Both the position numbers and the translations under genes were made by a program. Below, one piece after another: positions 23,980 to 62,657 of a DNA stretch of 64,000 bases. The number at the start of each line of letters is the position of its first letter. Position 1 is the first letter of the stretch. Source of the DNA: Elusimicrobiota bacterium (GTDB taxonomy: Bacteria > Elusimicrobiota > Elusimicrobia > 2-02-FULL-39-32); contig JAKFYJ010000011.1 in assembly GCA_021730935.1 (NCBI GenBank), positions 3,401 to 67,400 of the forward strand, in the 5' to 3' direction. Below the pieces are notes generated by a model. It did not search any database and was not told the origin of the DNA. It was given only the letters and a program-made list of their open reading frames with translations.

Positions 23980-24034
23980 GTCCCGTTTAATACGGGACTT
24001 GGAGGCATTATACAAAAATTTTTTTTGAGGTCAA
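23980..24034 (-). promoter_or_regulatory. sigma70 promoter (TTGACC, 16-nt spacer, TATAAT) plus a 5'-UTR hairpin for porin paralog 1
   Basis: Minus strand: the -35 TTGACC is the revcomp of 24029..24034, and the -10 TATAAT is the revcomp of 24007..24012. A perfect hairpin gtcccg-tttaata-cgggac at 23980..23998 lies between the TSS and the SD. Confidence 0.5.
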
Positions 24035-24128
24035 CAAAAAACCGAACGCGGACCGCTTGGTAAACAAGGAGGTTACCAAAGGCAGGTCGCGCGTCCGGAA
24101 TTGTGAATTACTTTAAAGTAACTTCAGT

Positions 24129-25256: not shown

Positions 25257-25346
25257 GTGTCCTCCTTGGGATTATGTTTTATTTTGAAAATCGGCCGGGC
25301 CCTGAGCCGGGCGTTTAAGCCCTGCCCAGAGACCCGGAAGTTTGAT

Positions 25347-25688
25347 TTATGCGACCACTTTTTCGCCGCGTTCTGCCGTGCGGATGCGGATGGCTTCTTC
25401 AATGGGTGAGATGAAGATCTTTCCGTCTCCCACCTGGCCTGTGGCCGCCGCTTTCAAGATGGCGTCCACGAGACCTTTCACTTCGCCGTCCGGAGCGATG
25501 ATTTCGATCTTCGTTTTAGGAAGGAAATCAATCTTGAAGGGGCGTCCCCGGAACTGTTCCGTGAGACCCTTCTGCTTCCCGTGGCCTTCGATGTCCGTGA
25601 CCATCATGCCCGGACAATGGATCGCGTCCAGAGCATCTTTAACTTCGGTCAGTTTTTCTCTTCTGATGATGGCTTCAATTTTTTTCAT
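25347..25688 (-). CDS. glnK: Nitrogen regulatory protein P-II
   Basis: 112 aa. MKKIEAIIRREKLTEVKDAL... T-loop GHGKQKG. Confidence 0.9.
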   Translation of the reverse strand: MKKIEAIIRREKLTEVKDALDAIHCPGMMVTDIEGHGKQKGLTEQFRGRPFKIDFLPKTKIEIIAPDGEVKGLVDAILKAAATGQVGDGKIFISPIEEAIRIRTAERGEKVVA

Positions 25689-25712: not shown

Positions 25713-27329
25713 TCAACCGCGGCTCATCGGGGTTTCCGAATGTTTGTCCATTTTCACCCCGACATATCCCGGAATGCCCATTTCGGGAAGATCCAGACCT
25801 TCAACTTCAGCGATGGGGTCCACTCTGTGTCCGATCGTCACATCGATCAGTTTGAACACGATGTAGCCCGCGATGCCGACATAAAGGAAGTTGGCTCCAA
25901 CGCCGATGACCTGGGCGAAGAACTGTGAAGAATCGCCGTAGAAAAGCCCTTTGACTGGGCCTGCAACGCCGTTCCATCCGTCGCCGTAGGATCCGTCAGC
26001 AAAGAGTCCGAGAGCGATGCAGCCCCAGGCGCCGTTCACGCCGTGCACTGCGATGGCTCCCACGGGATCGTCGATCTTGAGGGTGCCTTCAATGAAGAAC
26101 ACCGCTTCCACGACCAGGAGTCCGGAAATGGCGCCGATCAGGCAGGCCACCTGAGAGTTCACGAATGCGCAGGGTGCTGTGATCGCGACCAAGCCGGCCA
26201 AAAGTCCGTTGCACATCATGCTGGGATCAGGTTTCTTGAAGCGGACCAGCCACATCCAGAGGGTTGCGACCAACGCTCCGAAGGATCCGGCCAGCATGGT
26301 GTTGACGGCGACCACGCTCATGCGGAAATCCGTTCCCGCGAGGGTGGATCCGGGGTTGAAGCCGAACCAGCCGAAGGCGAGGATGAAGGTTCCGATGATG
26401 GCCATGGGGATGTTGTGTCCCGGGATGGCGTTGGGCGAGCCGTCTTTGTTATATTTGCCGATTCTGGGGCCGATGATGAGGGCTCCGATCAGGGCGAGGA
26501 CGCCGCCGGTCAAGTGAACCACGGAAGAGCCCGCGAAATCCACATGCCCGTGTCCCAATCCGAAATTCTTGCCGAGCTGAGCCAGCCAGCCGCCGCCCCA
26601 GACCCAGTTACCATAGATGGGATAAAGGATGGTGCCGACGAAGAGCCCGTAAACCATAAACGCGGAGAATTTCCAGCGTTCCGCCATCGATCCTGTGGGG
26701 ATGGTGGCTGTGGTGTCCATGAACACCATCTGGAAGAGGAACATCGCGAAGATGCTCACATCGTATCCGCCGGAAAGGAAGAAGCCTTTCGTGCCGAAAA
26801 GCCCGAAATCCTTGCCGAAGAGGTGGATGGTATATTGGCTGGAATAAATGTCTGTTCCGCCGAGAGTTCCCAGGGCGCCAAGGCCGCCGAACATCAAGCC
26901 ATAACCCGCGATATAGAACCCGATCATGCCGAGCGGATAAATCATGAAGTTCATGGCCATGGTGTGGGACACGTTCTTGGCGCGAGTGAGGCCCGTTTCA
27001 ACCATTGCGAAACCGGCCTGCATGAACATGACGATGAATCCCGTGATGAGGACCCACATCATGTTGATGGCGATTTTGTTGTGGCCGACCTGGTTGGCGA
27101 TCTCGAGGACCGTGGGTTTTCCAGGGGTCGCGGCAGAAATGTCCGAGATGTTTCCCGTGTTCGCCCCCGTGGGGTCCGGCGTCCTTCCCGAAGCCGCGGG
27201 CGCTTCAACAACCAACGCCCCTGTTCCGGGAGCGGCTTGAACGGCCGCATCGTCTGCGTGCACAAAAGGCGCGGAAAGGCCGAGAATCATCGCGGCCAAG
27301 AGCGCCATACATCTTATTTTTTTACTCAT
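25713..27329 (-). CDS. amtB: Ammonium transporter with signal peptide
   Basis: Amt/MEP family: the TM signatures and the conserved His pair are present. The likely start is ATG 27329 with SD GGAGGG. The track ORF extends upstream to a TTG. Confidence 0.9.
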   Translation of the reverse strand: MSKKIRCMALLAAMILGLSAPFVHADDAAVQAAPGTGALVVEAPAASGRTPDPTGANTGNISDISAATPGKPTVLEIANQVGHNKIAINMMWVLITGFIVMFMQAGFAMVETGLTRAKNVSHTMAMNFMIYPLGMIGFYIAGYGLMFGGLGALGTLGGTDIYSSQYTIHLFGKDFGLFGTKGFFLSGGYDVSIFAMFLFQMVFMDTTATIPTGSMAERWKFSAFMVYGLFVGTILYPIYGNWVWGGGWLAQLGKNFGLGHGHVDFAGSSVVHLTGGVLALIGALIIGPRIGKYNKDGSPNAIPGHNIPMAIIGTFILAFGWFGFNPGSTLAGTDFRMSVVAVNTMLAGSFGALVATLWMWLVRFKKPDPSMMCNGLLAGLVAITAPCAFVNSQVACLIGAISGLLVVEAVFFIEGTLKIDDPVGAIAVHGVNGAWGCIALGLFADGSYGDGWNGVAGPVKGLFYGDSSQFFAQVIGVGANFLYVGIAGYIVFKLIDVTIGHRVDPIAEVEGLDLPEMGIPGYVGVKMDKHSETPMSRG

Positions 27330-27365
27330 GTTAGTACCCTCCTTGTGGTTTAGTGTATCTTTGAA

Positions 27366-27417
27366 ATTAAAAAAACCTGACAAAAAATCACAACCCTCCT
27401 TGGCTGTGTTTGTCAGG
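27366..27417 (-). terminator. Terminator-like leader hairpin plus U7 upstream of the amtB SD (candidate attenuator)
   Basis: mRNA sense: CCUGACAAA-CACAGCC-AAGGAG-GGUUGUG-AUUU-UUUGUCAGG-UUUUUUU. A 9-bp outer stem and a 7-bp inner stem with a G-U pair, with an SD-like AAGGAG in the loop. About 35 nt further on comes the real SD and the ATG. Confidence 0.45.
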
Positions 27418-27636
27418 CGCCTTTGCCTTTTCGCGGAATGTCGTCACGTCCTTGTTTCGTGATTCCGGTCTATGTTTTTGGTTTTAAAATAAAAAATCCT
27501 CCTCGGCCGCGTCTGACCTTGGAGGACCTCAATGTCCTTGTGAAAACTGCGTCACAACAATGTGACTGCCAGTATTATATACCAACCGCCCAAAACTTGT
27601 CAAGCATTATTTATATTTTTTTTATATCATCTATGC

Positions 27637-29460: not shown

Positions 29461-29607
29461 TCCGGCGGGTAACGCATACTGAGGGCAAAAAAAATCCCCC
29501 GGCTTTATTATGATCAAGCCAAGAGGAATTTAATTTCGAAAGTCGTTTGCCTTACTTCCCTACAACTATACCACCCAAACCCGTTCCTGTCAATAGGAAT
29601 TTATTTT

Positions 29608-30033
29608 TTATGTTTGAGAACGCACTTCGTCGACGAGGCTTTCGACGCGGAGCGATGATTTTTGCGCGATTCTGTCCATGTCTTGGTCAGCGTGCAGAAG
29701 GACAAGGCCGTGTTTTATCGCTTTGAATGCGATGAGCGCGTCCATCGTTTTAACTTTCAGCCCCTTTTTCCTCACAGATTGAGCCCATTTCGCGGCCTCA
29801 AGCCATTCGTCGGGATAAAGAGGGAAAGGGTGAAGGGAAGTCAGATATGTTTTCAGTTTTTGCGCCGCGAAGGGTTCTTTGATTCCGGAAAGAAGTTCAA
29901 AAAGAATGGGAGAACTGATGGCGGCCAAATTTTCACTGACTAATTCCGAGACTCTCTCCCTGACGCTTGCGACCGGCTTGGATCCAAGAGCGAAAAGCCA
30001 GGCGGAGCTGTCGATCAAAACCAGGGGTTTCAA
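29608..30033 (-). CDS. vapC: PIN-domain toxin
   Basis: MKPLVLIDSSAWLFAL... The conserved acidic residues D7, E~45 and D~100 are present. Its start overlaps the stop of the upstream antitoxin. Confidence 0.8.
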   Translation of the reverse strand: MKPLVLIDSSAWLFALGSKPVASVRERVSELVSENLAAISSPILFELLSGIKEPFAAQKLKTYLTSLHPFPLYPDEWLEAAKWAQSVRKKGLKVKTMDALIAFKAIKHGLVLLHADQDMDRIAQKSSLRVESLVDEVRSQT

Positions 30034-30227
30034 GCGCGCCGGAGTTTCAAATCTTTCAGGGAAAAATCCACGCGGAATTCATCAAACTCTCTGACGAACC
30101 GTTTCCTGTGGACATCGGCCAAAAGGTTTCGAAGCCCGCTCTCCAAAACAATTCTCTGGGACTTGAGGCCCGTTTCGCGAATCGCTTTCTTCAGCAGAGT
30201 CCCGTCGATATTTGTGGTGATTTTCAT
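30030..30227 (-). CDS. vapB: Antitoxin of the VapBC module
   Basis: MKITTNIDGTLLKKAIRETGLKSQRIVLESGLRNLLA... is about 65 aa. A strong SD AGGAGGG lies before the ATG at 30227. It overlaps vapC by 4 bp. Confidence 0.6.
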   Translation of the reverse strand: MKITTNIDGTLLKKAIRETGLKSQRIVLESGLRNLLADVHRKRFVREFDEFRVDFSLKDLKLRRA

Positions 30228-30301
30228 GTTCCCTCCTGTATGGCAATGGCTACCATACAAATATATCAGGAATTGGGCAGAACTTCAATAAGGATGAATT
30301 T

Positions 30302-32287
30302 TTATACGCGGATCGGGAGGATCATGAGAGGGATTCCCTGGTGATAGAATTTCCTCTGCATGGCGAAAACCGTGTAGTTGTGGAGGAAGCGGGAGACATA
30401 GGTGTCGTCGGGAAAAACAAGCTGTCCGCCGAAAAAGATGGAGTCCGGGAACTTCTTTAATATTTGAGGCGCCAATTCCGACACTTCTTCCACCACATCA
30501 TTCGCGATGGAGTGAATTCCTTCCGCGTAAAAACCGTTCCGCTTCATGAACTCCACATAGCGTTCGATGTCCTTGATGCAATGTTCTTCAAGTTTTTCCA
30601 CTTCGGCGGATCCTTTGAAGGTCCCGGCGTCCACGATGCCAACCTGCACGAAAACATAATTCTTGAAAGTGTCCTGAAAATGCCGGATGACATTGAAAAG
30701 AGTGTGGAGTCCAAGCCCATTGAACCCATTCACCAGCACGACGGCGGTTTTGGCTTTCGGGTCAGCCACAGGTTGCACCCCTTTGTGAACATGGGGTTCG
30801 AAAGCGGAGCCATAGGTGGAGACCACAAGGCTTTCCAGGCGGCGCAGGGTTTGGAGGGTGTGGTTATAATGCCGTTTGATAAACAGAGAAAGGCCGATCA
30901 GTGTTCCGGTCACGAGCAATGTGATCCAGCCGCCTTCGTGGAATTTGAGGATCGTGACGGAGATCAGGATAAAAAGCGTGAGGATGAGGCCCAGGCCGTT
31001 CACGCCAATCTTTTTGGTCCAGTGCGGAATATTTTTTCCGCGTTCTTCCCACCAGTGTTTGACCATCCCGAGCTGTGAGAGAAAGAAGGTGATGAACACA
31101 TTGATGGAATAAAGCACGACGAGGAAACGGACAGAACCTTTGGACAAAATCATGAGGATTCCGGCGGAAATGCCCATGATGAGGATTCCGTTCATGGACA
31201 CAAAGCGGTCGGAGAGCATGGAAAACCGCGTGGGCGCCCAGCGGTCAAGCGCCATGTTGGAAAGCACTCGGGGACCGTCCAGAAACCCGGCTTGCGCCGC
31301 GACAAACAAGATGGCGGCTTCTGAGAACAAAGTTATAAATATGAAAGTTGTTGCAGTCGTTCCCCCCCATCCCTTGGTCATCTCGTCAAAAAGAACGGCG
31401 TTCAATGTTTTTCCGGGCATCTTTTGCACATTGAAAAGGAGATAGGCCAACATTAACCCGACAACCATGAACGCGAGCGAACTGGCCATATACCTCATGG
31501 TCCGTTTTCCCGTCTGGACTTTGGGTTCGCGGAGCAGAGGAACGCCGTTGGAAACAGCTTCAATTCCTGTGTATGTTCCGGCGCCCAAACTATAGGCCCG
31601 AAGGATCATGACGAACATGCCCAAAAATCCCACTTCCATGCGCGTCGCGTGGACATCGGAGGCGGTTTGAGAAATGACGGCGGGCATGTTGCCCGAATGC
31701 GTAAATAAAGCATAGATCACGGCGAAAGCGTGGGTCAGCACGAAAATTAAAAATACGGGAACAAGCGGAATCACGGATTCCTTGACGCCCCTGAGGTTCA
31801 GGATCGTCAAAAGGATGACGCCCACGATGGCGAAAGTGAGTTTATAGGAAAGATAATGTTCCGGGAAAAAGCTGAACATGGCGTCCGCGCCGCTGGCGAT
31901 GGAGATGGCGATGGTTAAAACATAGTCGATCAGGAGGGCGCAGCCGGAAACCATGCCGGCCGTGGGAGACAACAGTTTGCTCGCGACAAGATATCCACCG
32001 CCGCCGGTTGGGAAGAGCTCGATGATCTGTGAATAACTCGCGCTGATGATAAAAATGGTCGCGGCAGATGCCAGGGCCACGAATATCGCGAGGTGGGTGT
32101 GGCCTCCGAGGGCCAAAAACGCTTCTTCAGGGCCGTAACACGAAGACGAAAGTCCGTCGGCGCCAAGGCCCACCCAGGCCAGGAACGCGATGAGTGAAAG
32201 TTGATGGAAAATGGAGTGGTCTCTCGGGTTGAGTTCGTCTCCGATGACAATTTTTTTTACTTTTTCTGCCGCGGCTTCAATGGTCAT
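30302..32287 (-). CDS. APC-superfamily transporter with a ~200-aa cytoplasmic C-terminal domain (KimA-like architecture)
   Basis: 12 TM segments with an APC-type fold (GGGGYLVASKLLSPTAGMVSGCALLIDYVLTIAISIASG), followed by a soluble C-terminal domain. Confidence 0.65.
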   Translation of the reverse strand: MTIEAAAEKVKKIVIGDELNPRDHSIFHQLSLIAFLAWVGLGADGLSSSCYGPEEAFLALGGHTHLAIFVALASAATIFIISASYSQIIELFPTGGGGYLVASKLLSPTAGMVSGCALLIDYVLTIAISIASGADAMFSFFPEHYLSYKLTFAIVGVILLTILNLRGVKESVIPLVPVFLIFVLTHAFAVIYALFTHSGNMPAVISQTASDVHATRMEVGFLGMFVMILRAYSLGAGTYTGIEAVSNGVPLLREPKVQTGKRTMRYMASSLAFMVVGLMLAYLLFNVQKMPGKTLNAVLFDEMTKGWGGTTATTFIFITLFSEAAILFVAAQAGFLDGPRVLSNMALDRWAPTRFSMLSDRFVSMNGILIMGISAGILMILSKGSVRFLVVLYSINVFITFFLSQLGMVKHWWEERGKNIPHWTKKIGVNGLGLILTLFILISVTILKFHEGGWITLLVTGTLIGLSLFIKRHYNHTLQTLRRLESLVVSTYGSAFEPHVHKGVQPVADPKAKTAVVLVNGFNGLGLHTLFNVIRHFQDTFKNYVFVQVGIVDAGTFKGSAEVEKLEEHCIKDIERYVEFMKRNGFYAEGIHSIANDVVEEVSELAPQILKKFPDSIFFGGQLVFPDDTYVSRFLHNYTVFAMQRKFYHQGIPLMILPIRV

Positions 32288-32315: not shown

Positions 32316-32380
32316 AAAAAACAAAGGCGTTCGATAAATTTTAACATTTCTGTCAAAACCTACGAACGCCTTTGTTCGAT
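32316..32380 (-). terminator. Rho-independent terminator downstream of glnN
   Basis: On the minus strand, a 14-bp stem aacaaaggcgttcg...cgaacgcctttgtt with a ~30-nt loop is followed by TTTTTT. Confidence 0.4.
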
Positions 32381-32409: not shown

Positions 32410-34569
32410 TTATAGGTTGAAGAGCATGTCCGCATAAGTCGGGACAGGCCAGAGACCCTTGGGCATGATCTGTTCCAAAGCGTCAATGTCGGCTCTGAGA
32501 GCGACTTGCGCCGTGAACACACTGTCCCTGAACGCTTCCGCTTTCTTCTCCACATCGCCGATGCCGTTGGCTTTGTCGGTGGCCGCTTCAAGAGCCGAGA
32601 GCTTTTTGCTGGCAGATTTCAGGAGTCCGGAAACGGTGTCCAGGCACTCTTTCTGGACGGAAGAATCCGCGCCGGCTTCTTTGAGGGCGGAGACATCGTT
32701 GGCGAGCTCGCTGGCATAAGCCATGATGGCCGGGATGAACTGCGTCTTGGTCATCTGGATGGCCGCGCGGGCTTCGATGTTGATGTGTTTCGCGTATTGC
32801 TCGAGGTAAATGTCGTATCTGGAATGGAGTTCCCGTTTGGACAGGACGCCGTATTTTTCGAAGAGGCGGACAGCGTCAGCGTTGGCCATGGCGGCATAAG
32901 CTTCGATGGAGGACTTGATGTTGGGGAGTCCTCTCTTGGCCGCTTCTTTCACCCATTCTTCGGAATATCCGTTGCCGTTGAAAACCACGCGGCCGTGCTT
33001 GGCCCAGGTTTCTTTCACGATGGCGGCCACTTCTTTATTTTTATCCTTCGCGCCTTCAAGCCGGGTGGCGATTTCATCAAGCGCTTCGGCGGCGATGGTG
33101 TTGAGCACCGTGTTGGGGCCTGCGATGCTCGCGGAAGAAGGCACCATGCGGAACTCGAACTTGTTGCCGGTGAAGGCAAAAGGCGAGGTGCGGTTTCTGT
33201 CCGTGTTGTCGAGGGGCAGGGCCGGCAGAGAATCCACGCCGATGGTCAGGAACTGCTGTCCCTTGGCCTGGGTGGCTTTGCCTTTGGAAATGTTTTCCAG
33301 GAGCTCGGTCAAGAATGAGCCCATGAAGACGGAAATGATGGCCGGAGGCGCTTCGTTGGCGCCCAAACGGAGGTCGTTGCCGGGGTTGGCGGCGCCCGCG
33401 CGGAGCTTGTCAGCGTGTTTGTCCACGGCTTTGAGCGTGGCGGCCAAGAATGTCAAGAAAACTTCGTTTTCGTGAGGCGTGTGTCCGGGTTCCAGGAGGT
33501 TGATTCCGTCGTCGGTGGCGAGAGACCAGTTGTTGTGTTTGCCGGAGCCGTTCACGCCTGCGAAGGGCTTTTCATAAAGGAGGCAGACGAGCCCGTTTCT
33601 CAAGGCCACTTTCTGCATCGTTTCCATCACGAGCTGGTTGTGGTCTGCCGCGATGTTGGTGGTGGAGAAGATGGGCGCCATTTCGAACTGGGCGGGAGCC
33701 ACTTCGTTGTGCTTGGTCTTGGAGGCGATCCCCATCTTCCAAAGCTCAATGTCGAGCTCTTTCATGAACTTGGAGATGCGGTCTTTGATCGCGCCGAAAT
33801 ATTGGTCTTCGAGTTCCTGGCCCTTGGGGCTGGCGGCTCCGAAGAGGGTGCGTCCGGAAGCGATCAAGTCCGCTCTCTGGTCAAAATAGTCCTTGTCAAT
33901 CAGGAAATATTCCTGCTCGGGTCCGACGGTGGAAGTCACGCGCTTGGAAGATTTGTTGCCCAAGGCGCGGAGCACGCGGAGGGCCTGCTTGGAAACGGCT
34001 TCCATGGAGCGGAGCAAAGGGGTTTTCTTGTCCAACGCTTCTCCAGTGTATGAGCAGAATGCTGTCGGGATCGTGAGAGTCACATCGCCTGCCGCGTCTT
34101 CTTTGAGGAAGGCGGGAGAGGTGCAGTCCCAGGCAGTGTATCCGCGGGCTTCAAAGGTGGCCCGAATGCCGCCGGAAGGGAAGCTGGACGCGTCGGGTTC
34201 GCCCTGGATGAGCTGTTTGCCGGAAAATTCAGCGACGGCGGAACCGTCTTTCTGAGGTGCCAGGAACGAATCGTGTTTTTCAGCGGTCTTTCCGGTCAAG
34301 GGTTGGAACCAGTGGGTATAATGAGTTGCGCCTTTGGCGATGGCCCAGTCTTTCATGGCTTCGGCCACGATGTTGGCCACTTCAGGGGTGAGCTTGGCTT
34401 CTCCCGTCTGGACTTTTTTCATGGCTTCATAAGTCGATTTGGGAAGGACTTTTTTCATCACGCTGTCGTTGAAGACGTTGGATCCGAAAATTTCGGCGAT
34501 GCCGGATTTCTTGCGGGCGGAGCCGTTCACTTCTGCGATTAATTTTTCTACGGATTGTTTGGTTGCCAT
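32410..34569 (-). CDS. glnN: Glutamine synthetase type III
   Basis: 719 aa, a GSIII length. It lies in an operon downstream of amt-glnK. Confidence 0.8.
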
Positions 34570-34715
34570 AATATTTTCCTTTGAATAAAAATTTACTGAC
34601 GCAATGCGCGCGTTAAGAGTTAAAAGTTCATTCGGGCTTCGTTGCCAGATGAGTTCTCAGCTTTGAGGGATGGTTTATTATATCAAAATACCTCCTTTTA
34701 TTTCAATAACCCTGT

Positions 34716-35057
34716 TTATCCAATCGCAATCTCTCCGGTTTCCCCCGAGCTGATGCGCACGCAGTCCTTCATTTCGAAGACGAAGATTTTTCCGTCGCCA
34801 ACCTTGCCTGTTTTTGCGCCTTTCATGATGGCGTCCACGGCGTTTTTGACATAGTCATCATTGACGGCGATTTCCAGCTTGGTTTTCTTGAGCAGGCTTC
34901 CGGCTTCCTTGTGGCTTCTGTAAACTTCGGAAATCCCCTTCTGCCTCCCGCGCCCCATCACGGGAGAGACCGTCATGAGATGGATGCCGGATTCATCGAG
35001 GAGCCGCATCACTTCGTCCAGTTTGTCGGGTTGAATGATCGCAACGATATATTTCAT
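34716..35057 (-). CDS. glnK: Nitrogen regulatory protein P-II (second copy)
   Basis: 113 aa. MKYIVAIIQPDKLDEVMRLLDESGIHLMTVSPVMGRGRQKG... Confidence 0.85.
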   Translation of the reverse strand: MKYIVAIIQPDKLDEVMRLLDESGIHLMTVSPVMGRGRQKGISEVYRSHKEAGSLLKKTKLEIAVNDDYVKNAVDAIMKGAKTGKVGDGKIFVFEMKDCVRISSGETGEIAIG

Positions 35058-35081
35058 AAATTTATCTCCTTTATATAAAAA

Positions 35082-36329
35082 TCAGTCCAACAAGGTGTAT
35101 CCGGCTTCGCGGTGCTGGGTGAGGTCGAGACCGATCCGTTCCTCATCTTCGCTGACGCGCAGGCCAATCACCATGTCGACCAGTTTCAGGAGAGCATAAC
35201 TCGCGATGAAAGAATAAACCGCTGTGATGACCGCGGCTTTGAGCTGAATGAGGACGAGGCCCGCATTGCCGTAAAAGAGCCCATCCGCGCCGGCGGAATT
35301 GACCGACTTTGTGGCCCAGAGGCCGGTGGCGATGGCGCCCCAGAACCCGCCCACGCCGTGAACGCCGAAAGCGTCCAGCGTGTCGTCATATCCGAATTTG
35401 ACTTTGACATAGGCCACGGAGATATAGCAAATGATGGAGACGGTGACGCCGATGCCGATGGCGCCGGCCAAGCCCACAAACCCTGCCGCGGGAGTGATGG
35501 CGACGAGACCTGCCACGGCTCCCGTGATCATGCCGAGCATCGTGGGATGGTCATTGAAAATCCAGTCCAGGGCAGACCAAACAAGTCCTGCGGTTGCCGC
35601 GGCCACATGGGTGACCACAAAGGCGTTCACGGCCAGGCCATTGGCTCCGAGGGCGCTGCCGCCATTGAACCCGAACCAGCCGAACCACAAAATGCCCGCG
35701 CCCAAAACCGCGAAGGGCAGGTTGTGGGGCGGTGACATCATGTTGGGATATCCCTGCCGTTTTCCGAGGAAAAGAGCGGAAGCGATTGCGGCCGCTCCGG
35801 CGTTGATGTGGACCACGGTTCCCCCGGCGAAATCCAGGGCTCCGTCGGCTCTCAAAAATCCTCCCACGGCCCAAACCCAGTGGCAGACGGGATCATAAAC
35901 AAGAGTCGCCCATAATAAGGAAAATACGCAGAAGGCGGAAAATTTCATGCGTTCCGCGAAAGCGCCCAAAATGAGGGCGGGCGTGATGACCGCGAACATG
36001 CACTGATAAATCATGAAGGCCGAGTGAGGGATGGTGGCGGCATAATCCGGGTTGGGGTCTGCGCCAACGCCTTTGAGCCACGCCCAGTCGAGGGAGCCGA
36101 TCCAGCCGCCGGGATGGAACGACAAGCTGTATCCAAAAAGAACCCACTGGAGAGTGACAAGGCAGGCCACGGCCATGCACTGCATGAGGATGGAAAGCAT
36201 GTTTTTCTTGCGCACGAGTCCGCCATAAAAGAAGGCGAGCCCTGGAGTCATGAAGAGCACGAGAGCCGCGCTGATCATAACCCAGGCGGTGTCGCCGGTG
36301 TTGATGGTGAGGGGTGTTGTCGGGTCCAT
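35082..36329 (-). CDS. amt: Ammonium transporter (second copy, no signal-peptide extension)
   Basis: 415 aa. Amt family. SD AAGGAGG before the ATG. Confidence 0.9.
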   Translation of the reverse strand: MDPTTPLTINTGDTAWVMISAALVLFMTPGLAFFYGGLVRKKNMLSILMQCMAVACLVTLQWVLFGYSLSFHPGGWIGSLDWAWLKGVGADPNPDYAATIPHSAFMIYQCMFAVITPALILGAFAERMKFSAFCVFSLLWATLVYDPVCHWVWAVGGFLRADGALDFAGGTVVHINAGAAAIASALFLGKRQGYPNMMSPPHNLPFAVLGAGILWFGWFGFNGGSALGANGLAVNAFVVTHVAAATAGLVWSALDWIFNDHPTMLGMITGAVAGLVAITPAAGFVGLAGAIGIGVTVSIICYISVAYVKVKFGYDDTLDAFGVHGVGGFWGAIATGLWATKSVNSAGADGLFYGNAGLVLIQLKAAVITAVYSFIASYALLKLVDMVIGLRVSEDEERIGLDLTQHREAGYTLLD

Positions 36330-36362
36330 TTAATTCCTCCTTGTAGAATTAAATTCAGACAT

Positions 36363-36411
36363 AAAAAAATCCTAACAACCGGAGATCAGGGAGATCTTCG
36401 AATCATTAGGA
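36363..36411 (-). terminator. Terminator-like leader hairpin plus U7 upstream of the second amt SD (candidate attenuator)
   Basis: mRNA sense: UCCUAA...(30 nt, partly self-complementary ggagatc/gatcttc)...UUAGGA followed by UUUUUUU. The SD and ATG follow about 25 nt later. Confidence 0.4.
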
Positions 36412-36539
36412 CATCATTGTCCAAAAAGAATATGGTTATTTTTTCGGCTCCGGAGCACAGCGTTGTGTCCGGAACGGCGGAGATAATATCAAAAAAATTC
36501 TGACATATCAAGCCGGACGCGATTTGGTAAAATGTCGAC

Positions 36540-37715
36540 ATGAGCCATGTCCAAATCGTTTCAGCGGCGCTGATCATCGTTTCAGGCGCGTTATTATACG
36601 CCAGGAATTCCTTCCGGCGGAGGCTGGAAGATCAGGCGCTCAATTTCAGCGCTCAGAGGGCGGATTTTGAGAGAGAAGTTTTCGCGCTCCGCATAAAGAA
36701 CGAGGAGTTTTCGGGAATCCTCAGGAGCATGGCGGAGCTGGTCATCGCTGTCGATCCTGAGGGCCGTATCCTTTATTTGAACCCGTCGGCGGAAAAAATA
36801 TTCCAGGTCAACAGCGGGGCGAGCATCGGGAAATCCTTTCTGGAAGTGATCCGTCAATCCACCGTGAGCGCTTTGATTTCACTGGCGCTCAAAGCGGGGG
36901 CAGAGGTTTCGGAGAGCATTCACCTCTTCCTTCCCGACGAGAAGTTTTTTGACGCGAAGGCGATCCCCCTCGTCGCCGACATGAAGACCCGCGGAGTGCT
37001 TTTGGTTTTGCATGATGTGACAGCCGTAAAAAAGCTTGAGGAAGTTCGCAAAGATTTTGTCGCCAATGTCTCGCATGAGCTCCGGACCCCTCTCACTTCC
37101 ATTCAGGGCTATGCCGAAACTTTGCTGGACGGGGCCCTTTCTGACGATAAAAATAACCGTGAATTCGTGCAGACGATCCATGACCAGGCCGAACGGCTCA
37201 GCCGGCTCGTGAACGATTTGCTGGATCTTTCCGCCATTGAATCCGGCAGAAAAACTCCGAAATCGGCGGATTTTATATTGAAGGATTTGATCGCTGAAGT
37301 CAAAAACTCCCTCTCGCCCCTCGCCAAAAAACGCGGAGTCAAAATAGACGCGGATATTCCCGAAAATCTTGTGTTCCGAGCCGATCGAGATCAAATCAAA
37401 CAGGTTCTGATCAATCTTGTGGACAACGCCGTGAAGTTCAATCGCAAGGGCGGAACGGTTTTTCTTTCAGCGTCGTCAAACGAATCCGGAACAACCCTCC
37501 AGGTGAAAGACAGCGGAAACGGAATTCCGGAATCGGATTTGCCGAGGATTTTTGAGAGGTTTTATCGCGTCGACAAAGGGCGTTCGCGCGAAGAAGGCGG
37601 GACGGGGCTGGGCCTGGCCATTGTGAAACATATCGTTGAAGCCCATGGCGGAACGGTGCGCGTTGAAAGCCTTTCCGGAGAAGGTTCGACATTTTTTGTG
37701 CATTTGCCAAAATGA
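36540..37715 (+). CDS. phoR: Sensor histidine kinase, PhoR-like (tentative)
   Basis: An N-terminal TM segment, a PAS-like region, an H-box FVANVSHELRTPLTSIQGY (very close to the E. coli PhoR H-box) and a HATPase domain. An extended -10 TGGTAAAAT ends 6 nt before the ATG, suggesting a possible leaderless transcript. Confidence 0.7.
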   Translation: MSHVQIVSAALIIVSGALLYARNSFRRRLEDQALNFSAQRADFEREVFALRIKNEEFSGILRSMAELVIAVDPEGRILYLNPSAEKIFQVNSGASIGKSFLEVIRQSTVSALISLALKAGAEVSESIHLFLPDEKFFDAKAIPLVADMKTRGVLLVLHDVTAVKKLEEVRKDFVANVSHELRTPLTSIQGYAETLLDGALSDDKNNREFVQTIHDQAERLSRLVNDLLDLSAIESGRKTPKSADFILKDLIAEVKNSLSPLAKKRGVKIDADIPENLVFRADRDQIKQVLINLVDNAVKFNRKGGTVFLSASSNESGTTLQVKDSGNGIPESDLPRIFERFYRVDKGRSREEGGTGLGLAIVKHIVEAHGGTVRVESLSGEGSTFFVHLPK

Positions 37716-37732
37716 TTGAAAAGGGAGCTGTT

Positions 37733-38149
37733 ATGAAACGAGTTTTATTCTTATGCACTGGGAATTCGTGCCGCAGTCAAATGGCTGAAGTCATGATGAA
37801 TCAACTCGGCCGCGGCGCTTATGAAGCCGTGAGCGCGGGAGCGAAGCCGGCGGGCTATGTTCACCCCCTCGCGGTTCAAACGTTGAAAAACCTTGGGTAT
37901 CCCGTCCAAGGGCTCCGTTCCAAATCCTGGGACGAGTTCAAAGGGCAATCGTTCAATCTCATTGTCACGGTGTGCGACAACGCGAAAGAATCCTGCCCCG
38001 TTTGGCCCGGGAACCCCAAAACCCTGCACTGGAGCTTTGAGGATCCGGCTCACGCTCAGGGCACAGACGAACAGAAATTGTCCGTCTTCTTGAAAATCGC
38101 GAATCAAATTGAGTCCCGCATAAACGCATTTTTATCCGAACCCGAATGA
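37733..38149 (+). CDS. arsC: Arsenate reductase / LMW phosphotyrosine phosphatase family
   Basis: CTGNSCRSQMAE P-loop. About 138 aa. SD AAAGGGAG before the ATG. Confidence 0.75.
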   Translation: MKRVLFLCTGNSCRSQMAEVMMNQLGRGAYEAVSAGAKPAGYVHPLAVQTLKNLGYPVQGLRSKSWDEFKGQSFNLIVTVCDNAKESCPVWPGNPKTLHWSFEDPAHAQGTDEQKLSVFLKIANQIESRINAFLSEPE

Positions 38150-38808
38150 ATAAAGAAAACTTGCGCAAATATCTGGCAGAGGCAATCGGGACATTTTGTC
38201 TTGTGTTCGCAGGCACGGGAGCGGCGGCTGTGAATCAGGCCACAGGCGGACAGCTGGGCGTCGTGGGCGTGGGGCTGGTTTTCGGGCTTGCGGTCCTTGC
38301 GATGATCTATACGATCGGTCCCGTTTCCGGCGCGCACATGAACCCTGCAGTGACTCTCGCCTTCGCAGTCGCGGGCCGCTTTCAATGGAAGGAAACTGTC
38401 CCTTATATGGCTGCCCAAATTGCGGGCGCCATAACCGCGAGCCTTGTTTTGAAAATTATCTTTTATGGGAACGCGACCCATCTCGGGATGACATTGCCGT
38501 CAGGGTCCTGGGGTCAGAGTTTTGCTTTGGAGTTTATGTTGAGTTTCATCCTGATGTTCGTCGTGATGGGTGTCTCGACGGACGGACGGGAAGAGGGCAT
38601 TATGGCTGGGGTTGCAATCGGCTCGATCATCGCACTGGAAGCTATTTTTGGAGGACCGATCTCCGGGGCCTCCATGAATCCTGCAAGGTCTCTGGCTCCT
38701 GCGCTCGTTTCAGGGAACTTGCAGTTCCAATGGATTTATTGGATTGCGCCGATTTTTGGAAGCATTTCCGGCGCGTTCGTTTATGCGTTGGTCTCCACCA
38801 AAATTTGA
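38146..38808 (+). CDS. MIP-family channel (aquaporin/aquaglyceroporin)
   Basis: Two NPA motifs (SGAHMNPAVT and SGASMNPARS) and 6 TM segments. Its start overlaps the arsC stop. Confidence 0.85.
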   Translation: MNKENLRKYLAEAIGTFCLVFAGTGAAAVNQATGGQLGVVGVGLVFGLAVLAMIYTIGPVSGAHMNPAVTLAFAVAGRFQWKETVPYMAAQIAGAITASLVLKIIFYGNATHLGMTLPSGSWGQSFALEFMLSFILMFVVMGVSTDGREEGIMAGVAIGSIIALEAIFGGPISGASMNPARSLAPALVSGNLQFQWIYWIAPIFGSISGAFVYALVSTKI

Positions 38809-41800
38809 TGTTTGAGCCGTTCTTTGGAATCCTGGAGCGGAACAGTTCTTGCAGGAAGAACCAAAGTTCCATTGGGCCCTTCCATGTCCCTCATCATTTT
38901 TCCGGCTTTTTCACTCCCATAAACTGAATTCATAAATTCTGACATTTCTCTCGTCGCCTCCGGGCTCAAAGCAACGGAAACCGCAAAAGGATCTGAAATG
39001 ACTCCCCCGTCCCCTGCATGGACGCCCAAAATGATCTTAAACAAGTTCGAGATTTCCCCCACAAAAATTCCAGAATCAGGCGTGATGAGAGAGAAGGCGA
39101 GGTCAGAGGTGTCCCGTCTCTCTCCCTTTTCCAAAACCTTCAGGACCGATTGAGTGAGGGGTTTTAATCCGATTTTGGTGCCCTCAGGCGTTTCGACGAG
39201 TGAATTTTCCTGCTGGAGGCGGTGGAAGTCCCATATGAAGTTTTCAGAAACGAGGCCCTGAGGAATGTCCGCCTGACGGAGGCATTCGTTCATCACCTGC
39301 GCCAGAATCTCCCGCTCCGTGTTTCCGGCCTCCAGTCCCTCAAAATCAATGAGGGGCTCATGAGAAATCAGAGCGAAGCGAATCTGTTTTTCTCGTCCCT
39401 GGGACGCCGCGTCGTCCAAAATCGCGTGGATCTGCCGGAGAGCAGAGCTGATTCCGGGCCGCGTCTTGAAACTCACGAGCCCTTCTTTATAACTGATTTC
39501 TTCAAATAATGATCTGCGGTCGATGAGGATGACCCGCGTCATTTTATTGTTCAGTGTTCCCGGGTTCCAGGGGGCGATTTCTGAAGCGTCACCCCAGGCC
39601 ATTGTTGAGAACGCTCCCATCAAGGCCTTTTCGGCGGAAACAATTTTGCTGGGCTTGTCATTTGCCACGGACTGCAAATAATCCTGAGCCCATTGTGAAT
39701 CTGGAAGCGCCGCGGCAAGCCCGGCTTGTATCTGAAGCGAAAATACGTTTCCATGAACATCTTTTTCAAGCCACGCGAGAGGTTTGCTCATGGATGGAGC
39801 GACGATTCCGAATGAAGGAACTCTTCCCCGGAGGTCGCCCGGCATGGAAGCCACAACGGCGGCGAGGTTGGGATAATCTTTTTTGCGGATGCGTTTCCCG
39901 GTCAAGAAAAAGCGCAGTCTCATAAAGAGGGAAAAAATCAGCATCAAAGGCGGGAATGCCGCTCCCTGGAGGTTCTCAACATCAGTTTTGCTGCTATTTT
40001 GTAGGGAAGTCAACCGCTCTTCGAGAACCTGTTTTTTTGCTTTGAGATCATTTATTTCCTGCTGTGCTTTTTTATCGGCATTTATTTCAGGTTTTTTTAA
40101 ATTCCCGGCTAAAAAGCGTCCGACTTTGACCGCTCCATCGCGCACGACGGTGTTGATGTCATAAGTTTTCATTTTCATCCCGCGCTCTGCCCGCGTAATT
40201 TCGTTGTCGGCAAGGCGGACTTCAATTTCTGCCAGTTTGATCTCTGCATCGCGACTAAATGTAAATTCATCGTCTAAATCCTTCTTTGCGTCTGCAAGGA
40301 TTTCTGCGGCATTTTTTCCGTCGGCGAATTTCAAAGGTGACGATGAGGGACGGCGGATCATATGATTGATTTTTGAGAGGATTTCCTCCCGTTCCTTGTG
40401 GTTTTGAGCAGAAAGGTTATCGTCAATCGCCGCCAGCCTCGTCAGGTTTTGGACGAACCATTCGGCGTATCTGGCGCGTTCTTTTTGAGACAAAAGCGCG
40501 GTTCTTTCAGCCTGCAGGGAGGCTTGCTCAGCTTCCCAATGTCTATAATCTCTTGATCTCGAAGTCCAGGACGGCAAAGGAATGACAAAGGGAACCCCAA
40601 ACCTTACGCGCAGGCTTCCCTTAACGCCCTGGTCTTTTACGATTTGCCTGAATTTCAGTTCTTGAACGCGGAGGGCCTTGAAATAGACAGAGTTGTCCAA
40701 CGATTCACGGATCAGTCGGGGGATGTCTGCATTGCTGATTTCCAACGCATTGTCTTGAGCCCCTTTAGTCTCATTCTTCTTGTCCTTATCGGCGTTTCGG
40801 GCTTGTTTTATCTCTTTTTCAAGTTTCTTTTGTTCCGCGCTCTTTCCGCTTTTGAACGCAACAGGATAAACCCGGACATCGGCGCCAAGACCCGGGGTCG
40901 TGCCGAAATTGAATCCGAGCCTCACGGACGGATCGGAACCGAATTGTTGAAGGGTGAAAGGGAGGACGGGGAACCCCACGGCAGATTGGGCCGCGAGATA
41001 TGGGTTCAAATCACTCCGATTGTGGAATAGTTTCACCAGTCCGTCGGAAAAGTTGATTGAATAGATGAATCCCGCGGGACGACCCAATCCGTCAGAACCG
41101 AAACCGGCTTTCCAGCTGAGGCCGAAATGAGAGCCCCCCACGGTGACGGCGCGATAGCTCCTCTTTGCGGTTTTGTTCCCGTCAACGAAACTGAATGTGA
41201 ACCCCTTGGGCCCCTTCGCGCTGACTGAATAAGACATCACATTCTCAGTGATGGCATTTTGGCGGATTTTGTGTTCCGGCCCCACCGAGACGGAAGCGGA
41301 CCAGAATTTTGGAGGAGCCGTGACGGTGAAAGCGGGTTTTATAAGGCCGCCCAAATGGTTTCCGGCAGGCTGGGTTGTCGGGATGAAAGTTCCGGACCCT
41401 CCGAACTGAAAGCCTTTCACTTTTGCGGTCTTGGGAGCGACTTTCATGCCGAAACCCCGCACCATGACTTCTGCCCCGGAAATTTTTCCGGGAGAGAGTG
41501 TGCGTTTATACTCATATTCTCCCATGTAAACGGCGCTCAGGGTTCCCCAGTAAAAGGCCCGGTTGAGGCCGGCGTTGACCATGGCATAGCGGTTCCTGTT
41601 TTCCGTCGGAAAATTTTGCTGGTCATTGGAACGGAGGATGTTGACTGCGTCCGCAGTGAACGACACATTTTTCGACAGTCTCGCGGAAAAATCCGCGCTC
41701 TGAGCGTTGGTTTGCAGATCATCGGTTCTTCCTCTTTCCGTAAAAATTTGAGCTCCGCCGGAAACGGCGTCGTGGGCGCTCAAGAGGCGCACGCTTTGGG

Positions 41801-44800
41801 AAAATGTGAATCTCAAAGGATCATCGGCAACATCCGGGGCTCCAGATCTCAAAGGATATTCCGCCAGCGGGCTCATTCCCACGCCGAAGGATGTGTGAGT
41901 GAGGGCCGAATTGCCACCAAAGGAATAACTGCGGATGGCGTCCCCTCGGACCGAAGCGTTCGAAGTTCCCGTGACGCGGTCTGTCGTGTTGTTGACCGTC
42001 ATAGAATAAACCGTTCCGTTGAAAGTCCCCATCGCCGTCCCTTGCTGTTGGCTCATGAGAGCGTTTGAGTTGACATTGAATGTCTGACGGTTTAACGACG
42101 TCATCTTGGATGCGTTGACCGCTTTTTTGGCGGCACGCATGGATTTGAGCAAGGCGTCTTCTGCGCTTTTTTGGGCCAGGAGATCGTTGCCGTATTGTTT
42201 TCCGGGATTCCTGTCCAATCCGTTCAACTCATCATATTTCGCCTTCAATTCCTTATTGGAAGGGTCCAAGGCCATGGCTTCCTGGAGGTCAAGCATGATC
42301 CTGGCATACTGCGCGTTGGTGTAAAAGTTGGTGGAAGGTCCGCCTGCAATGACTGCGACCGCAGCGTCTCCAACGGCTTCAACCGCCTTGTTTTGAGGCG
42401 GCGTTACGGATTTGATCTGAGGAACGGATAAATTTGACTGATCAGGATTGAGCCATGGCGAATTGTCGGGTGCGGCTTTGGCGGCATTTTGCGCGGGATC
42501 AAGAGCCGCTTCCAAATGTGTCTCTACAAGAGGAGTTTCCTCTGCAGAGGTCTCCATTTTAGGTGTTTCAGCCGGAGCAATGTCTTCGATTTGCTTTTTC
42601 GGCGTGGCGATGAATGATTTCGTTGTATTTTTGTTTTGGATATTGATGGAACGCGAGACCAAGGGCTGAGCGATCAAGGGTGACGGAAGTTCCGGCGCCG
42701 TGAGTGTTTGAACAACCGCGCTGTTCTTATTGACAGGCGGCAATCCAGGAGATTCGTTGAGGTTCAGCAGAGGAGCAATCGGCGTCAAAAGCGTGCTGAT
42801 GAGCGCGGAAGAAATGATGAGTCTTTTTAGGATCTTGCCGGATTTCTGCTGGGTCAGGGAATAGAGGATTAAAGCGGCGGTGACAAAATAGAAAAATATT
42901 GCGGCGCCATGAATGTAGGCGGCCATTTGGATTGGAGCAAAGCTGAATTTGGAGAGGGCTAAGAGAGTCAGCAATCCGTCAAAGGACAAGAGAAGCGGCA
43001 TCCTGGCAGGCGCGGAGATCCAGCGTTTCCATGAAGACGGCGACTGGGCCATGGCAGGTTCGGGATTTTGTGTTTTCAGGGTTCTGATATAAAGTTCCCA
43101 GGAAGAATTCCATCCTGCGGATTTTGCGGCGTTTGCCAAGCGCTCGATGGATGCGGCGTCGGGTCTGGGGAGAGAGGCAAGAATCTGACGGATTTCTTCC
43201 GCCGTCCTCACGATCCTAAACGACGCGCCTCGGGCTTTGTCCAAAGTCAGCATGTGGGGCGTCACTCTTCCTCGTTTGTCTTTTCTGCCGAACAAAACAT
43301 AGCTGTGGTGGCCGGCGGAGAAGGAATCGTCGGAAAGCAGGATGTCTGAGCTCCATCCGCGTTTTTCCGATTGTTCCCGAAACCATTGCCGGATCAGCTC
43401 GTTTCTCTCCTTGCCGATGCTTCCGGTTGCGGCCATGGCCATCATCATGAGGCCCATGTCCTGGACTTTCGCAGGATTGGCCAAGGGGCTCGCGGCTCTG
43501 AACGTTTGATCCTCGGCAGAGCCTGAGGGCTGAAGAATGGTGTAAGAAATGTTCTCCTTCGCGATTTCCTTCAAGGTTTCCTGAGTGTGGAATCCCCCCA
43601 TCACGAGCGCCGCTTTTTTTGCGCCGGTTGATTTTATGGCCGCAACTGCATTCTCCGCGAGGGCTTTGTTTCGCTTCTCCGCCGATTCAAAATATTTTTC
43701 CGCGAACCTTCTATGCGCCACGAAAACATCCGGGGGAAGGACGGTTTTGAGTTCAGGGAAATCCGCCGCAAAATCTTTCCAGGGCTTCATCCGGCCGAGC
43801 GAAAGATATCGGCTCCAATCTCCGGGCGCCGCCTTCAGGCTCCAGAGCCTTTCGTTCATTTCGCGCCAGACCGTGATCCTCAGCGCTTTGCTTTGCCGGT
43901 CGCTGTCGGCGATGCGTTCCAGGATCGCCAAAGAAAGGCTGTCCAACTCTCCCGCGAGGGCGTCCATCTTGACCGTGTCAAAGAGCTTGAGATATTCGAC
44001 ATAATTTTCCAGATTTCCCGTGGGCAGTCCAAACCTTCGTCCTTGGGAGAGAAGGATCGAATAATAGGGGCTTGCTTCCGTCCGTCCCAACCGAACTTCG
44101 AGGTTCATCCGGAACAATTGGGAAAGATCTTCTTTCGAAAGTTTATCCCCGAGGCGTTTTAAAAGAGCCTGGGACTGTGAGGGAACCGCAGAAAAATCAG
44201 ATTTAGGGAAGCGGGAGAGAGTGTCAAGAATTTTCCGGCATTGAGGGCGGCCTGCCAGGGCATTGTTCCATGCAGAGCGATGTTTTTCCTGCACGGACTG
44301 CGCGGCTTTCTGCAGATAATCCTCCGGGCTGATTTCACCGTCTGAGAGCAGCCGTCTGAGCTTGTCAAGATTTTTGAGTTCCTGAGAAAAGCAGGATTCT
44401 TTTATGTTGTTTAAAATGGGTTCGAGGTTCTTTAAATATTCCAAAACGGCTTTTTGGTCCCTGCGCACGCGGCCCTGAGCTTTTCCGTTTTCTTTATAAA
44501 GTTCGGGGTCTTCGATGCCCCGGATGAGGACTTTTCTCGGCGTTGTCAGGGCATAAAATTCATCGCCTCTTAAAGCGCCGCTGTCAAAAAGCTCGCGAAG
44601 GACTTGAGATTTTATTTCGGAGTCGGGGAAACTCGCAAGCGCCTGGATGTCCAGGTCTCCGGACGATCCTTCAGAAAGGATCAGGTCTGTCGATTCCCGG
44701 GAAGAATTTTGAAAAAGCACGGTCAGGGCGCGGTGGAGGTTTTTTTGAGCAGAACCGTCTTCGTGCATGTCCTGGAAATGATAAAGCATGGGAGATCCCG

Positions 44801-45020: not shown

Positions 45021-45240
45021 AAGATTTTCTCCTCGACATAATAAAATTGATGGGTAAAGTTTATCTGATTCACGGACCCATGGACATGGCGGGCAATTAA
45101 AATCTGTTTGACGGTCTGTTGACAGGAGGGAATGAGGTTTGTCATATGGATGAAACACGGATTTTACATTCGGGGCATGTGTGGAAAGCCTTAAAGGTGG
45201 TATGATTGACAGGTATAATACACACAAGGTCATCGTCCTC

Positions 45241-51725: not shown

Positions 51726-51727
51726 CC

Positions 51728-60895: not shown

Positions 60896-60896
60896 A

Positions 60897-62647: not shown

Positions 62648-62657
62648 GGATCCCAAG

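Follow-up and report, generated by a model that had tools for sequence, protein, structure and literature searches.

A putative ANTAR/GnfR-type antitermination regulon in the leaders of two ammonium-transporter operons

What does an intrinsic terminator do in the leader of an operon, upstream of the very first gene? The question is raised by a 64-kb stretch (64,000 nucleotides) of contig JAKFYJ010000011.1, from a bacterium assigned to the Elusimicrobiota, which carries the nitrogen operons amtB1-glnK1-porins and amt2-glnK2-glnN-permease. The entire stretch is referred to here as the window; positions are window coordinates, and both operons are on the minus strand. An earlier examination of this DNA (the original prediction) had described a strong hairpin followed by seven U residues in both amt-glnK leaders and had proposed conditional read-through. 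As judged from the sequence features presented below, the leaders very probably constitute a protein-dependent antitermination regulon of the ANTAR/GnfR type.

Terminators and mutually exclusive hexaloop hairpins

The hairpin and U7 tract of the original prediction are present in both leaders, at the predicted positions on the minus strand (T2 and T3, Table 1). T2 (CCUGACAAACACAGCC-AAGGAG-GGUUGUGAUUUUUUGUCAGG, 27417..27376) folds as a single hairpin with an energy of -21.3 kcal/mol, compared to a mean of -8.8 for dinucleotide shuffles (z = -5.4). T3, a 42-nt hairpin (36411..36370), has an energy of -17.2 kcal/mol (z = -4.3). Both fold better than shuffled controls, with 0/200 shuffles as good in each case. 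The lone G-U pair in the apical stem of T2 would be a C-A mismatch on the opposite strand, as noted originally. The apical hairpin itself, CACAGCC-AAGGAG-GGUUGUG, has a six-nucleotide loop (hexaloop) with A at position 1 and G at position 4 (to be referred to as A1/G4). The genes upstream of the two leaders, encoding a CitMHS transporter (amtB1) and a histidine kinase (amt2), are divergent, in agreement with the original prediction, and therefore neither hairpin can be the terminator of a preceding co-oriented gene.

Four features escaped the original prediction: T1, a glnN-permease terminator, the hexaloop hairpins overlapping the terminators, and a dual hairpin upstream of glnN. Two terminators in series, T1 and T2, are contained in the amtB1 leader, which has a length of about 235 nt. 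The glnN-permease terminator (32377..32316) has an energy of -34.6 kcal/mol and a z-score of -8.75. T1, T2, T3 and the permease terminator all have the make-up of intrinsic terminators, with energies of -16 to -35 kcal/mol and z-scores between -3.7 and -8.75, and in each the stem runs straight into U6-U7. Across the region, matches to a generic terminator pattern are not in excess (25 found, 21.7 expected), and the support for these four elements therefore comes from their individual folding z-scores, their positions and their conservation.

A scan for the sigma70-type consensus places a predicted promoter, on the minus strand, in front of the amtB1 operon, the amt2 operon and the glnN leader (Table 1); the transcription starts are predicted as well, at about 27567, 36476 and 34670, respectively. 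If these predictions hold, the hairpins are transcribed within the leaders. A sigma54-type -24/-12 element (TGGCA-N7-TTGCA) is absent within 470 nt upstream of either amt gene, as also stated in the original prediction, which proved correct in all the details that were checked.

Each of the four terminators is overlapped by a hexaloop hairpin (P2), the 3' arm of which is formed by the first 3-12 nt of the terminator 5' arm. As a result of this shared segment, P2 and the complete terminator are mutually exclusive. When P2 is forced in the folding calculation, the bottom 6 (T1), 3 (T2), 3 (T3) and 12 (permease) base pairs of the terminator are stripped, directly next to the U tract, and the energy cost is only about 2 kcal/mol at T2 and T3. 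The P2 hairpins are weak, with energies of -4 to -5.5 kcal/mol, and are absent from the minimum-free-energy fold. The terminators win in free RNA, which makes termination the default; a factor that stabilizes P2 would give read-through.

In the amtB1 and amt2 leaders, the predicted transcript begins with a second hexaloop hairpin, P1. Tandem hexaloop stem-loops are found in unit 1 of the amtB1 leader (P1a and P2a), in the amt2 leader (P1c and P2c) and in the glnN leader (P1d and P2d), with P1-P2 linkers of 12, 27 and 9 nt, respectively. In the T2 unit, P2b is combined with the terminator's own apical hexaloop, whereas just one hexaloop is present in the permease unit. The nine loops of the window, AUUGUU, AUUGAG, AAAGGC, AAGGAG, AACGCU, AAUGAU, AAAGCU, AACGAA and AAAGGC, are without exception of the A1/G4 type.

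Table 1. Features of the two ammonium-transporter operons and their leaders (SD, Shine-Dalgarno sequence)
Feature	Position	Strand	Details
Predicted sigma70-type promoter, amtB1 operon	27574..27603	-	TTGACA-18-TATAAT, 12/12 consensus matches; likely start near A27567
P1a	27551..27566	-	GUCAC-AUUGUU-GUGAC (GTCACATTGTTGTGAC); extreme 5' end of amtB1 leader, A1/G4 loop
P2a	27523..27538	-	AGGAC-AUUGAG-GUCCU; 3' arm is the start of the T1 5' arm
T1, first intrinsic terminator of amtB1 leader	27486..27528	-	GGUCCUCC...GGAGGAUU then U6AU4; -20.5 kcal/mol, z = -3.7
Hairpin between T1 and T2	27434..27467	-	Loop AAACAAGGA, SD-like core ACAAGGA; not a canonical ANTAR hexaloop
P2b	27415..27429	-	AGGC-AAAGGC-GCCU; 3' arm GCCU overlaps the base of T2
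T2, reported amtB1 terminator	27366..27418	-	CCUGACAAACACAGCCAAGGAGGGUUGUGAUUUUUUGUCAGG plus U7; stem 27417..27376, U7 27375..27369
amtB1 with SD	25713..27346	-	SD ACAAGGAGG; ATG at 27329, coding sequence 25713..27329, 538 residues, Ammonium_transp
glnK1 (P-II)	25347..25688	-	Downstream of amtB1
Predicted sigma70-type promoter, amt2 operon	36483..36511	-	TTGATA-17-TATTAT, extended -10 TG
P1c	36450..36472	-	CCGGACAC-AACGCU-GUG(C)UCCGG, 3' side GUGCUCCGG; amt2 leader, A1/G4 hexaloop
P2c	36409..36422	-	GGAC-AAUGAU-GUCC; 3' arm inside the T3 5' arm; best-conserved block of amt2 leader
T3, reported amt2 terminator	36363..36412	-	UCCUAAUGAUU...GUUGUUAGGA then U7
amt2 and glnK2 with SD	34716..36344	-	amt2 35082..36329; glnK2 34716..35057 (P-II)
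Predicted promoter, glnN leader	34677..34706	-	TTGAAA-18-TATAAT
glnN leader	34635..34706	-	P1d CUC-AAAGCU-GAG (34668..34654), 9-nt linker, P2d GGC-AACGAA-GCC (34646..34635)
glnN, type III glutamine synthetase	32410..34569	-	Downstream of glnK2
Intercistronic attenuator, glnN-permease	32316..32378	-	CGAAC-AAAGGC-GUUCG within the 5' arm of a long terminator ending ...CGAACGCCUUUG then U6
Amino-acid permease gene	30302..32287	-	Downstream of the glnN-permease attenuator

Enrichment and conservation of the hexaloop units

The hexaloop pairs are concentrated in the leaders. Both strands of the window (128 kb) were scanned for tandem A1/G4 hexaloop pairs with at least 3 base pairs per hairpin, which gave 10 matches. 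Four of these are located in the 481 nt of the three leaders, where the density in the remaining sequence predicts 0.023 (Poisson p about 1e-8). As the linkers and the terminators vary in length and defy reliable alignment for a covariance model, hairpins were enumerated irrespective of their loop sequence. For all terminators in about 165 loci, every hexaloop hairpin overlapping the terminator 5' arm was listed. A1/G4 loops make up 23/53 of these hairpins at amt-leader terminators and 54/716 at the others (odds ratio 9.4, p = 2.6e-11). The corresponding fractions for R1/G4 loops are 33/53 and 137/716.

The units are also conserved in related contigs (the fetched amt loci are designated by L-numbers). 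The closest contig found, L081, whose Amt2 is 86% identical, has the same gene order, amt2-glnK-glnN-permease-amtB1. It holds every element described above, namely the P1 and P2 hairpins, T1, T2, T3, the permease attenuator, and the dual hairpin of the glnN leader. In pairwise alignments, conservation is centred on the P1 loops, on P2 together with the terminator base, and on the U tracts; GGACAAUGAWGUCCU and AAGGCAAAGNNGCCUGACAAA are examples of conserved blocks. The apical parts of the terminators have diverged yet still pair, the lower stem and U7 of T2 are identical, and one stem pair of T3 is changed from A-U to G-C. Conservation of the hairpins in orthologous leaders, a point on which the original prediction could be judged, is therefore observed. 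T1 is conserved in L165 as well as in L081.

The hexaloop hairpins show the same pattern. The ortholog of P1a in L081 is GUUAC-AAAGAU(U)-GUAAC, and that of P1c is CUCACGCAC-AAAGCC-GUGCCUGAG, with a lower stem that is entirely different but still paired. The glnN leader of L081 has the pair CUC-AAAGCU-GAG and GGC-AAUGGU-GCC, and the amt2 linker there is about 28 nt. When the loops of orthologous hairpins are compared (7 pairs), A1 and G4 are invariant, and positions 2, 3, 5 and 6 vary. The block GAC-RNNGNN-GUCCU is invariant when six first units, taken from five contigs, are aligned. Moreover, RNAalifold on 6 leaders recovers the terminator as well as the hexaloop hairpin P1, the latter with compensatory changes. 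The hairpin between T1 and T2 keeps its loop core ACAAGGA in L081 despite completely different stem arms.

The same design is seen in more distant and in unrelated loci. L093 has two complete hexaloop-terminator units in series, and the design is also present in L102 and L106. It is found in the amt1, glnA and porin leaders of L165, where the amt2 leader has hexaloop hairpins without a U tract, and in the amt and glnA leaders of L167. It also occurs in L004 (a metagenome-assembled genome, MAG, of Planctomycetales), L013 (a deltaproteobacterial MAG), L016 (Pelotomaculum) and L022 (Desulfitobacterium). Attenuators and sigma54-like elements nearly exclude each other: of 194 amt upstream regions, 18 carry an attenuator alone, 16 a sigma54-like element alone, and 1 carries both. 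This distribution suggests that attenuators and sigma54 promoters are alternative control modes at amt.

In place of an attenuator, a sigma54-type TGGCA-N7-TTGCA element precedes amt in the relatives L001, L164, L003, L010 and L014. The first two of these, L001 and L164, are named Omnitrophota and close relatives.

Probable antitermination by an ANTAR-type regulator, and alternatives

The features of these leaders are those of known ANTAR targets, which consist of two hexaloops with A1/G4, the second of them overlapping a terminator (PMC8934654). With a covariance model, Ramesh et al. (2012) found ANTAR matches upstream of P-II, ammonium transporter and glutamine synthetase genes (PMC3369931, Table S2). 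The motifs were preferentially located upstream of nitrogen genes, and up to 13 attenuators in six transcription units were present in one organism (PMC3369931). In Geobacter, the regulator GnfR binds CAGGCAANGGCGCC, which overlaps the terminators of the nifH leader, and the motif is also present in the glnK and amtB leaders (PMC2995071). In the window, AAGGCAAAGGCGCC (27429..27416, minus strand) matches this GnfR site at 13/14 positions and is fused directly to T2. An exact copy of the 13-nt core, AGGCAANGGCGCC, is present nowhere in the window except at P2b. The box is confined to the T2 unit, and the other four units do not have it.

The proposed mechanism concerns the terminators in the 5' leaders and in one intercistronic spacer of the two operons. 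Transcription would start at strong, probably constitutive, sigma70-type promoters and would stop by default at the leader terminators. Just before each terminator, the RNA could form the weak P2 hairpin, of 3-5 base pairs with an A1/G4 hexaloop, and P2 and the complete terminator would exclude each other through their shared arm. A similar hairpin, P1, would be present upstream, at the 5' end of the transcript, in three units. An ANTAR-domain regulator of the GnfR, EutV or NasR kind, encoded elsewhere in the genome and probably activated under nitrogen limitation, would bind the hexaloops and stabilize P2. Binding would strip the base pairs next to the U tract, and the polymerase would read into the amt, glnK, glnN and permease genes. 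The two serial terminators of the amtB1 leader would provide tighter control of that operon. We infer the identity of the regulator, its signal and the direction of regulation. The conditional read-through of the original prediction is supported at several levels, as the terminators are located downstream of predicted promoters, are conserved, are overlapped by an exclusive P2, and recur in unrelated amt leaders.

Several observations weigh against this assignment. Only one canonical hexaloop is located upstream of, or overlapping, the terminator in the T2 and permease units; a single hexaloop was taken as the minimal ANTAR site in structural work from 2022 (PMC8934654). The 27-nt linker of the amt2 leader is beyond the length tolerated by EutV, for which alone the rule was set: linkers are 5-12 nt in eut, and 3 or 14 nt abolish function (PMC3369931). 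The glnN leader has no recognisable intrinsic terminator, either here or in L081 (fold z = -0.85 compared to shuffles). Only 3 terminator base pairs are displaced by P2 at T2 and T3, and the first loop position is G instead of A in some relatives. The promoters are themselves predicted, as are the transcription starts.

The regulator is a further point on this side. No ANTAR-domain gene was detected in the 64-kb window by Pfam scans of sizeable open reading frames (ORFs) or by an ANTAR hidden Markov model (HMM), and none is located within about 10 kb of amt in L081, L164, L165 and L167. ANTAR proteins from Omnitrophota were found neither in a literature search nor among the named profile matches, which come from other phyla in a search that was not taxon-restricted. 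The ANTAR HMM was home-made, and all of its 120 best database matches carry PF03861.

ANTAR genes are located beside amt in three other fetched loci, as detected with the same HMM. They encode REC-ANTAR or GAF-like-ANTAR proteins and adjoin the amt operons at 1382..2110 in L037, at 2730..3341 (minus strand) in L047 and at 1..588 in L056. These loci are from Chthonomonadales, Bacillota and FCPU426 MAGs, and the amt leader of L047 also has a terminator.

The histidine kinase encoded next to the amt2 operon (36540..37715) was considered as a GnfK-like partner and rejected. Its homologs are of the PhoR/PnpS type, and the gene sits with arsenate-reductase-like and MIP genes.

In a more far-reaching version of the ANTAR reading, constitutive sigma70-type promoters and ANTAR-style attenuators would, in this Omnitrophota-like lineage, have replaced the NtrC/sigma54 control of the relatives, and the reader might be a regulator other than a canonical ANTAR protein. 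The leaders would then include output modes undescribed for ANTAR, namely the long-linker units and a conserved, terminator-less dual hexaloop in front of glnN that acts, for example, on translation, Rho or RNA stability. This version is rather unlikely.

The same terminator/antiterminator logic could also operate with a reader outside the ANTAR family, either a lineage-specific factor or one coupled to the co-transcribed P-II protein. Such a reader would fit with the lack of an ANTAR gene in the window and beside the orthologous operons, and with the departure of the long amt2 linker and the single-hexaloop units from the EutV rules. However, the A1/G4 hexaloops, their overlap with the terminators, the nitrogen-gene context and the 13/14 match to the GnfR box are exactly the features of ANTAR targets, and we know of no other protein family that reads the A1/G4 hexaloop motif. 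A non-ANTAR reader is therefore improbable.

Regulation would be absent altogether if the hairpins were partial terminators that damp strong promoters, insulators or stabilizing stem-loops, with the hexaloops being incidental. The terminators are strong on their own, P2 is weak and not part of the minimum-free-energy fold, and an orphan promoter with a terminator but without P1 or P2 is present at 29593..29487. What such hairpins leave unexplained makes this interpretation highly improbable: pairs of A1/G4 hexaloops are enriched in the leaders, terminators of amt leaders favor A1/G4 loops in several phyla, orthologs never differ at loop positions 1 and 4, and no other block of the leaders is as well conserved as P2.

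The original prediction had left the choice between a protein antiterminator and a metabolite-sensing RNA. The first is favored by the dual A1/G4 hexaloops and the near-exact GnfR box. A riboswitch, for glutamine as an example, that controls the terminators without a protein would fit with nitrogen genes and with terminators as expression platforms. However, there are 0 Rfam matches at the gathering score in the window, and permissive scans of both amt leaders are at chance level (best E 0.27; caiA, LOOT and snoRNAs). The two RNA families named as checks in the original prediction had different outcomes, as glnA RNA gives no match, and ANTAR is a specific match through the hexaloop features, with Rfam having no matching family. 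Moreover, no aptamer-sized structure is common to the three leaders, the orthologs keep only the small hairpins, terminator bases and U tracts, and only about 40 nt separate the start site from the terminator in unit 1 of amtB1. Riboswitch control is thus very improbable.

It is also very improbable that the small palindromes are DNA operators for a repressor or activator of the GlnR, TnrA, NtcA or CRP type, unrelated to the terminators. P1a (GTCACATTGTTGTGAC), located at the predicted start site, does form a perfect palindrome in the DNA. However, several hairpins have G-U pairs or bulges workable only in RNA (P1c in the window; L004, L016, L102). Conservation is seen at A1 and G4, in the centre of the loop, and not in the arms, which vary from one unit to the next (GAC/GUC, GGC/GCC, CGAAC/GUUCG), and the position of P2 is tied to the terminators, not to the promoters.

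Antitermination of the ANTAR type can be compared in detail with the GnfK/GnfR system of Geobacter sulfurreducens (Ueki and Lovley 2010, PMC2995071), which acts on genes for the fixation and assimilation of nitrogen. In both cases, terminator-like hairpins are present in the leaders of nitrogen genes, including glnK and amtB. The site of the REC-ANTAR protein, CAGGCAANGGCGCC, is on the 5' side of the terminator in Geobacter, and AAGGCAAAGGCGCC has the same position relative to the terminator in the T2 unit. There are also differences. The Geobacter targets have RpoN (sigma54) promoters under GnfL/GnfM, whereas those predicted in the window are sigma70-type with no -24/-12 element. The GGC-AANGGC-GCC box is present in 1/5 units here, and the others have GAC/GUC or CGAAC/GUUCG stems. 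A homolog of gnfR or gnfK was not identified in the window scans, and the source bacterium is Omnitrophota-like, not a deltaproteobacterium.

Similar dual-hexaloop systems include EutV (E. faecalis), NasR (K. oxytoca) and AmiR (P. aeruginosa), as well as predicted nitrogen regulons (PMC3369931, PMC8934654). The leaders share with these ANTAR targets the tandem A1/G4 hexaloops, a second hexaloop exclusive with the terminator, several or serial attenuators per regulon, and P-II, ammonium transporter and glutamine synthetase genes. In comparison to eut, the amt2 linker is longer (27 nt versus 5-12 nt), the canonical hexaloop is single in two units, a terminator is missing from the glnN unit, and the regulator would be unlinked to its targets. 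The published tables of ANTAR hits contain no organism of the PVC group or Omnitrophota.

The classical Ntr regulon (NtrC/sigma54, amtB-glnK) places the same genes under nitrogen control. There, an enhancer-binding protein controls initiation, whereas control in the present leaders appears to be post-initiation. The glutamine riboswitch (glnA RNA), found with amt and gln genes in cyanobacteria and marine bacteria, is likewise a cis-acting RNA control of nitrogen genes, but the leaders here have neither a match to an Rfam model nor a conserved aptamer fold.

Earlier publications had already described the mechanism and had linked it to amt, glnK and gln genes; new are the lineage, the setting behind predicted sigma70-type promoters, and a small number of atypical units. 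The five attenuator or hexaloop sites in one 10-kb cluster offer a testable model of how ammonium uptake and glutamine synthesis may be switched after initiation in an uncultivated, Omnitrophota-like bacterium. The ANTAR-nitrogen link would be extended to lineages outside the published surveys, represented by a Planctomycetales MAG and by contigs of the Omnitrophota-like kind. The findings also suggest that close relatives can control the same operons interchangeably, through attenuators or through sigma54 promoters. For annotation, the leaders would mark a nitrogen regulon and predict an unlinked ANTAR regulator in the genome.

Neighboring elements and genes of the window

The orphan promoter mentioned above (TTGACA-17-TATAGT, 29593..29565, minus strand) is followed about 30 nt downstream by a terminator with U8 (29529..29487). 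There is no gene behind this pair, which faces the 3' end of the convergent CitMHS gene, and the potential transcript is about 70 nt. The terminator aligns best with T1 of the amtB1 leader in L081. The pair (29593..29487) looks like a relic of an ancestral amtB1 leader that became separated from amtB1 when a VapBC module (30260..29608) and the CitMHS gene were inserted. The pair was also considered as an EutX-type small RNA that sequesters ANTAR proteins, and this was rejected as the A1/G4 hexaloops are missing.

Two BBP2 porin genes follow glnK1 in the same operon as amtB1, and hairpins of other kinds are located in this region. In the spacer between glnK1 and the first porin gene (25257..25346, minus strand), a weak U tract (AUUUUCAAAAU) is preceded by the G+C-rich hairpin CCGGG...GGGC-UUAAAC-GCCC...CCCGG. 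This element, which lacks an A1/G4 hexaloop, may terminate transcription partially. Behind the first porin gene, a terminator (24034..24098, minus strand) contains GGUAA-CCUCCUUGU-UUACC (24077..24059), the loop of which is the exact complement of the local Shine-Dalgarno context ACAAGGAGG. This element is also present in the amtB1 leader of L081, about 50 nt upstream of the Shine-Dalgarno sequence (L081 6610..6680). It may be an anti-Shine-Dalgarno or a mobile element.

Gene families were assigned by Pfam scans of all sizeable ORFs in the window. The closest named protein matches of Amt2 are from Candidatus Omnitrophota MAGs, with 76-78% identity, and those of the adjacent histidine kinase (36540..37715) are likewise from Candidatus Omnitrophota MAGs. 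On these matches and the giant ORFs described below, a kind typical of that phylum, the bacterium is probably Omnitrophota-like. A phosphate theme is apparent in other genes of the window. The PhoR/PnpS-like kinase gene is followed by genes for a low-molecular-weight phosphatase (ArsC-like) and a MIP channel (36540..38808, plus strand). Genes for a polyphosphate kinase, a PhoB-like response regulator of the OmpR family and a pstSCAB-like transporter are located further along the plus strand (45181..47361, 51554..52411 and 59873..63500).

The window also contains three giant ORFs, at 2460..14158 (minus strand), 38781..45539 (minus strand) and 52500..58124 (plus strand). The 2252-residue and 1874-residue ORFs have no confident Pfam domain. 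The 3361-residue ORF has a TPS secretion domain and haemagglutinin repeats, and is adjoined by a gene for a ShlB/FhaC-type partner.

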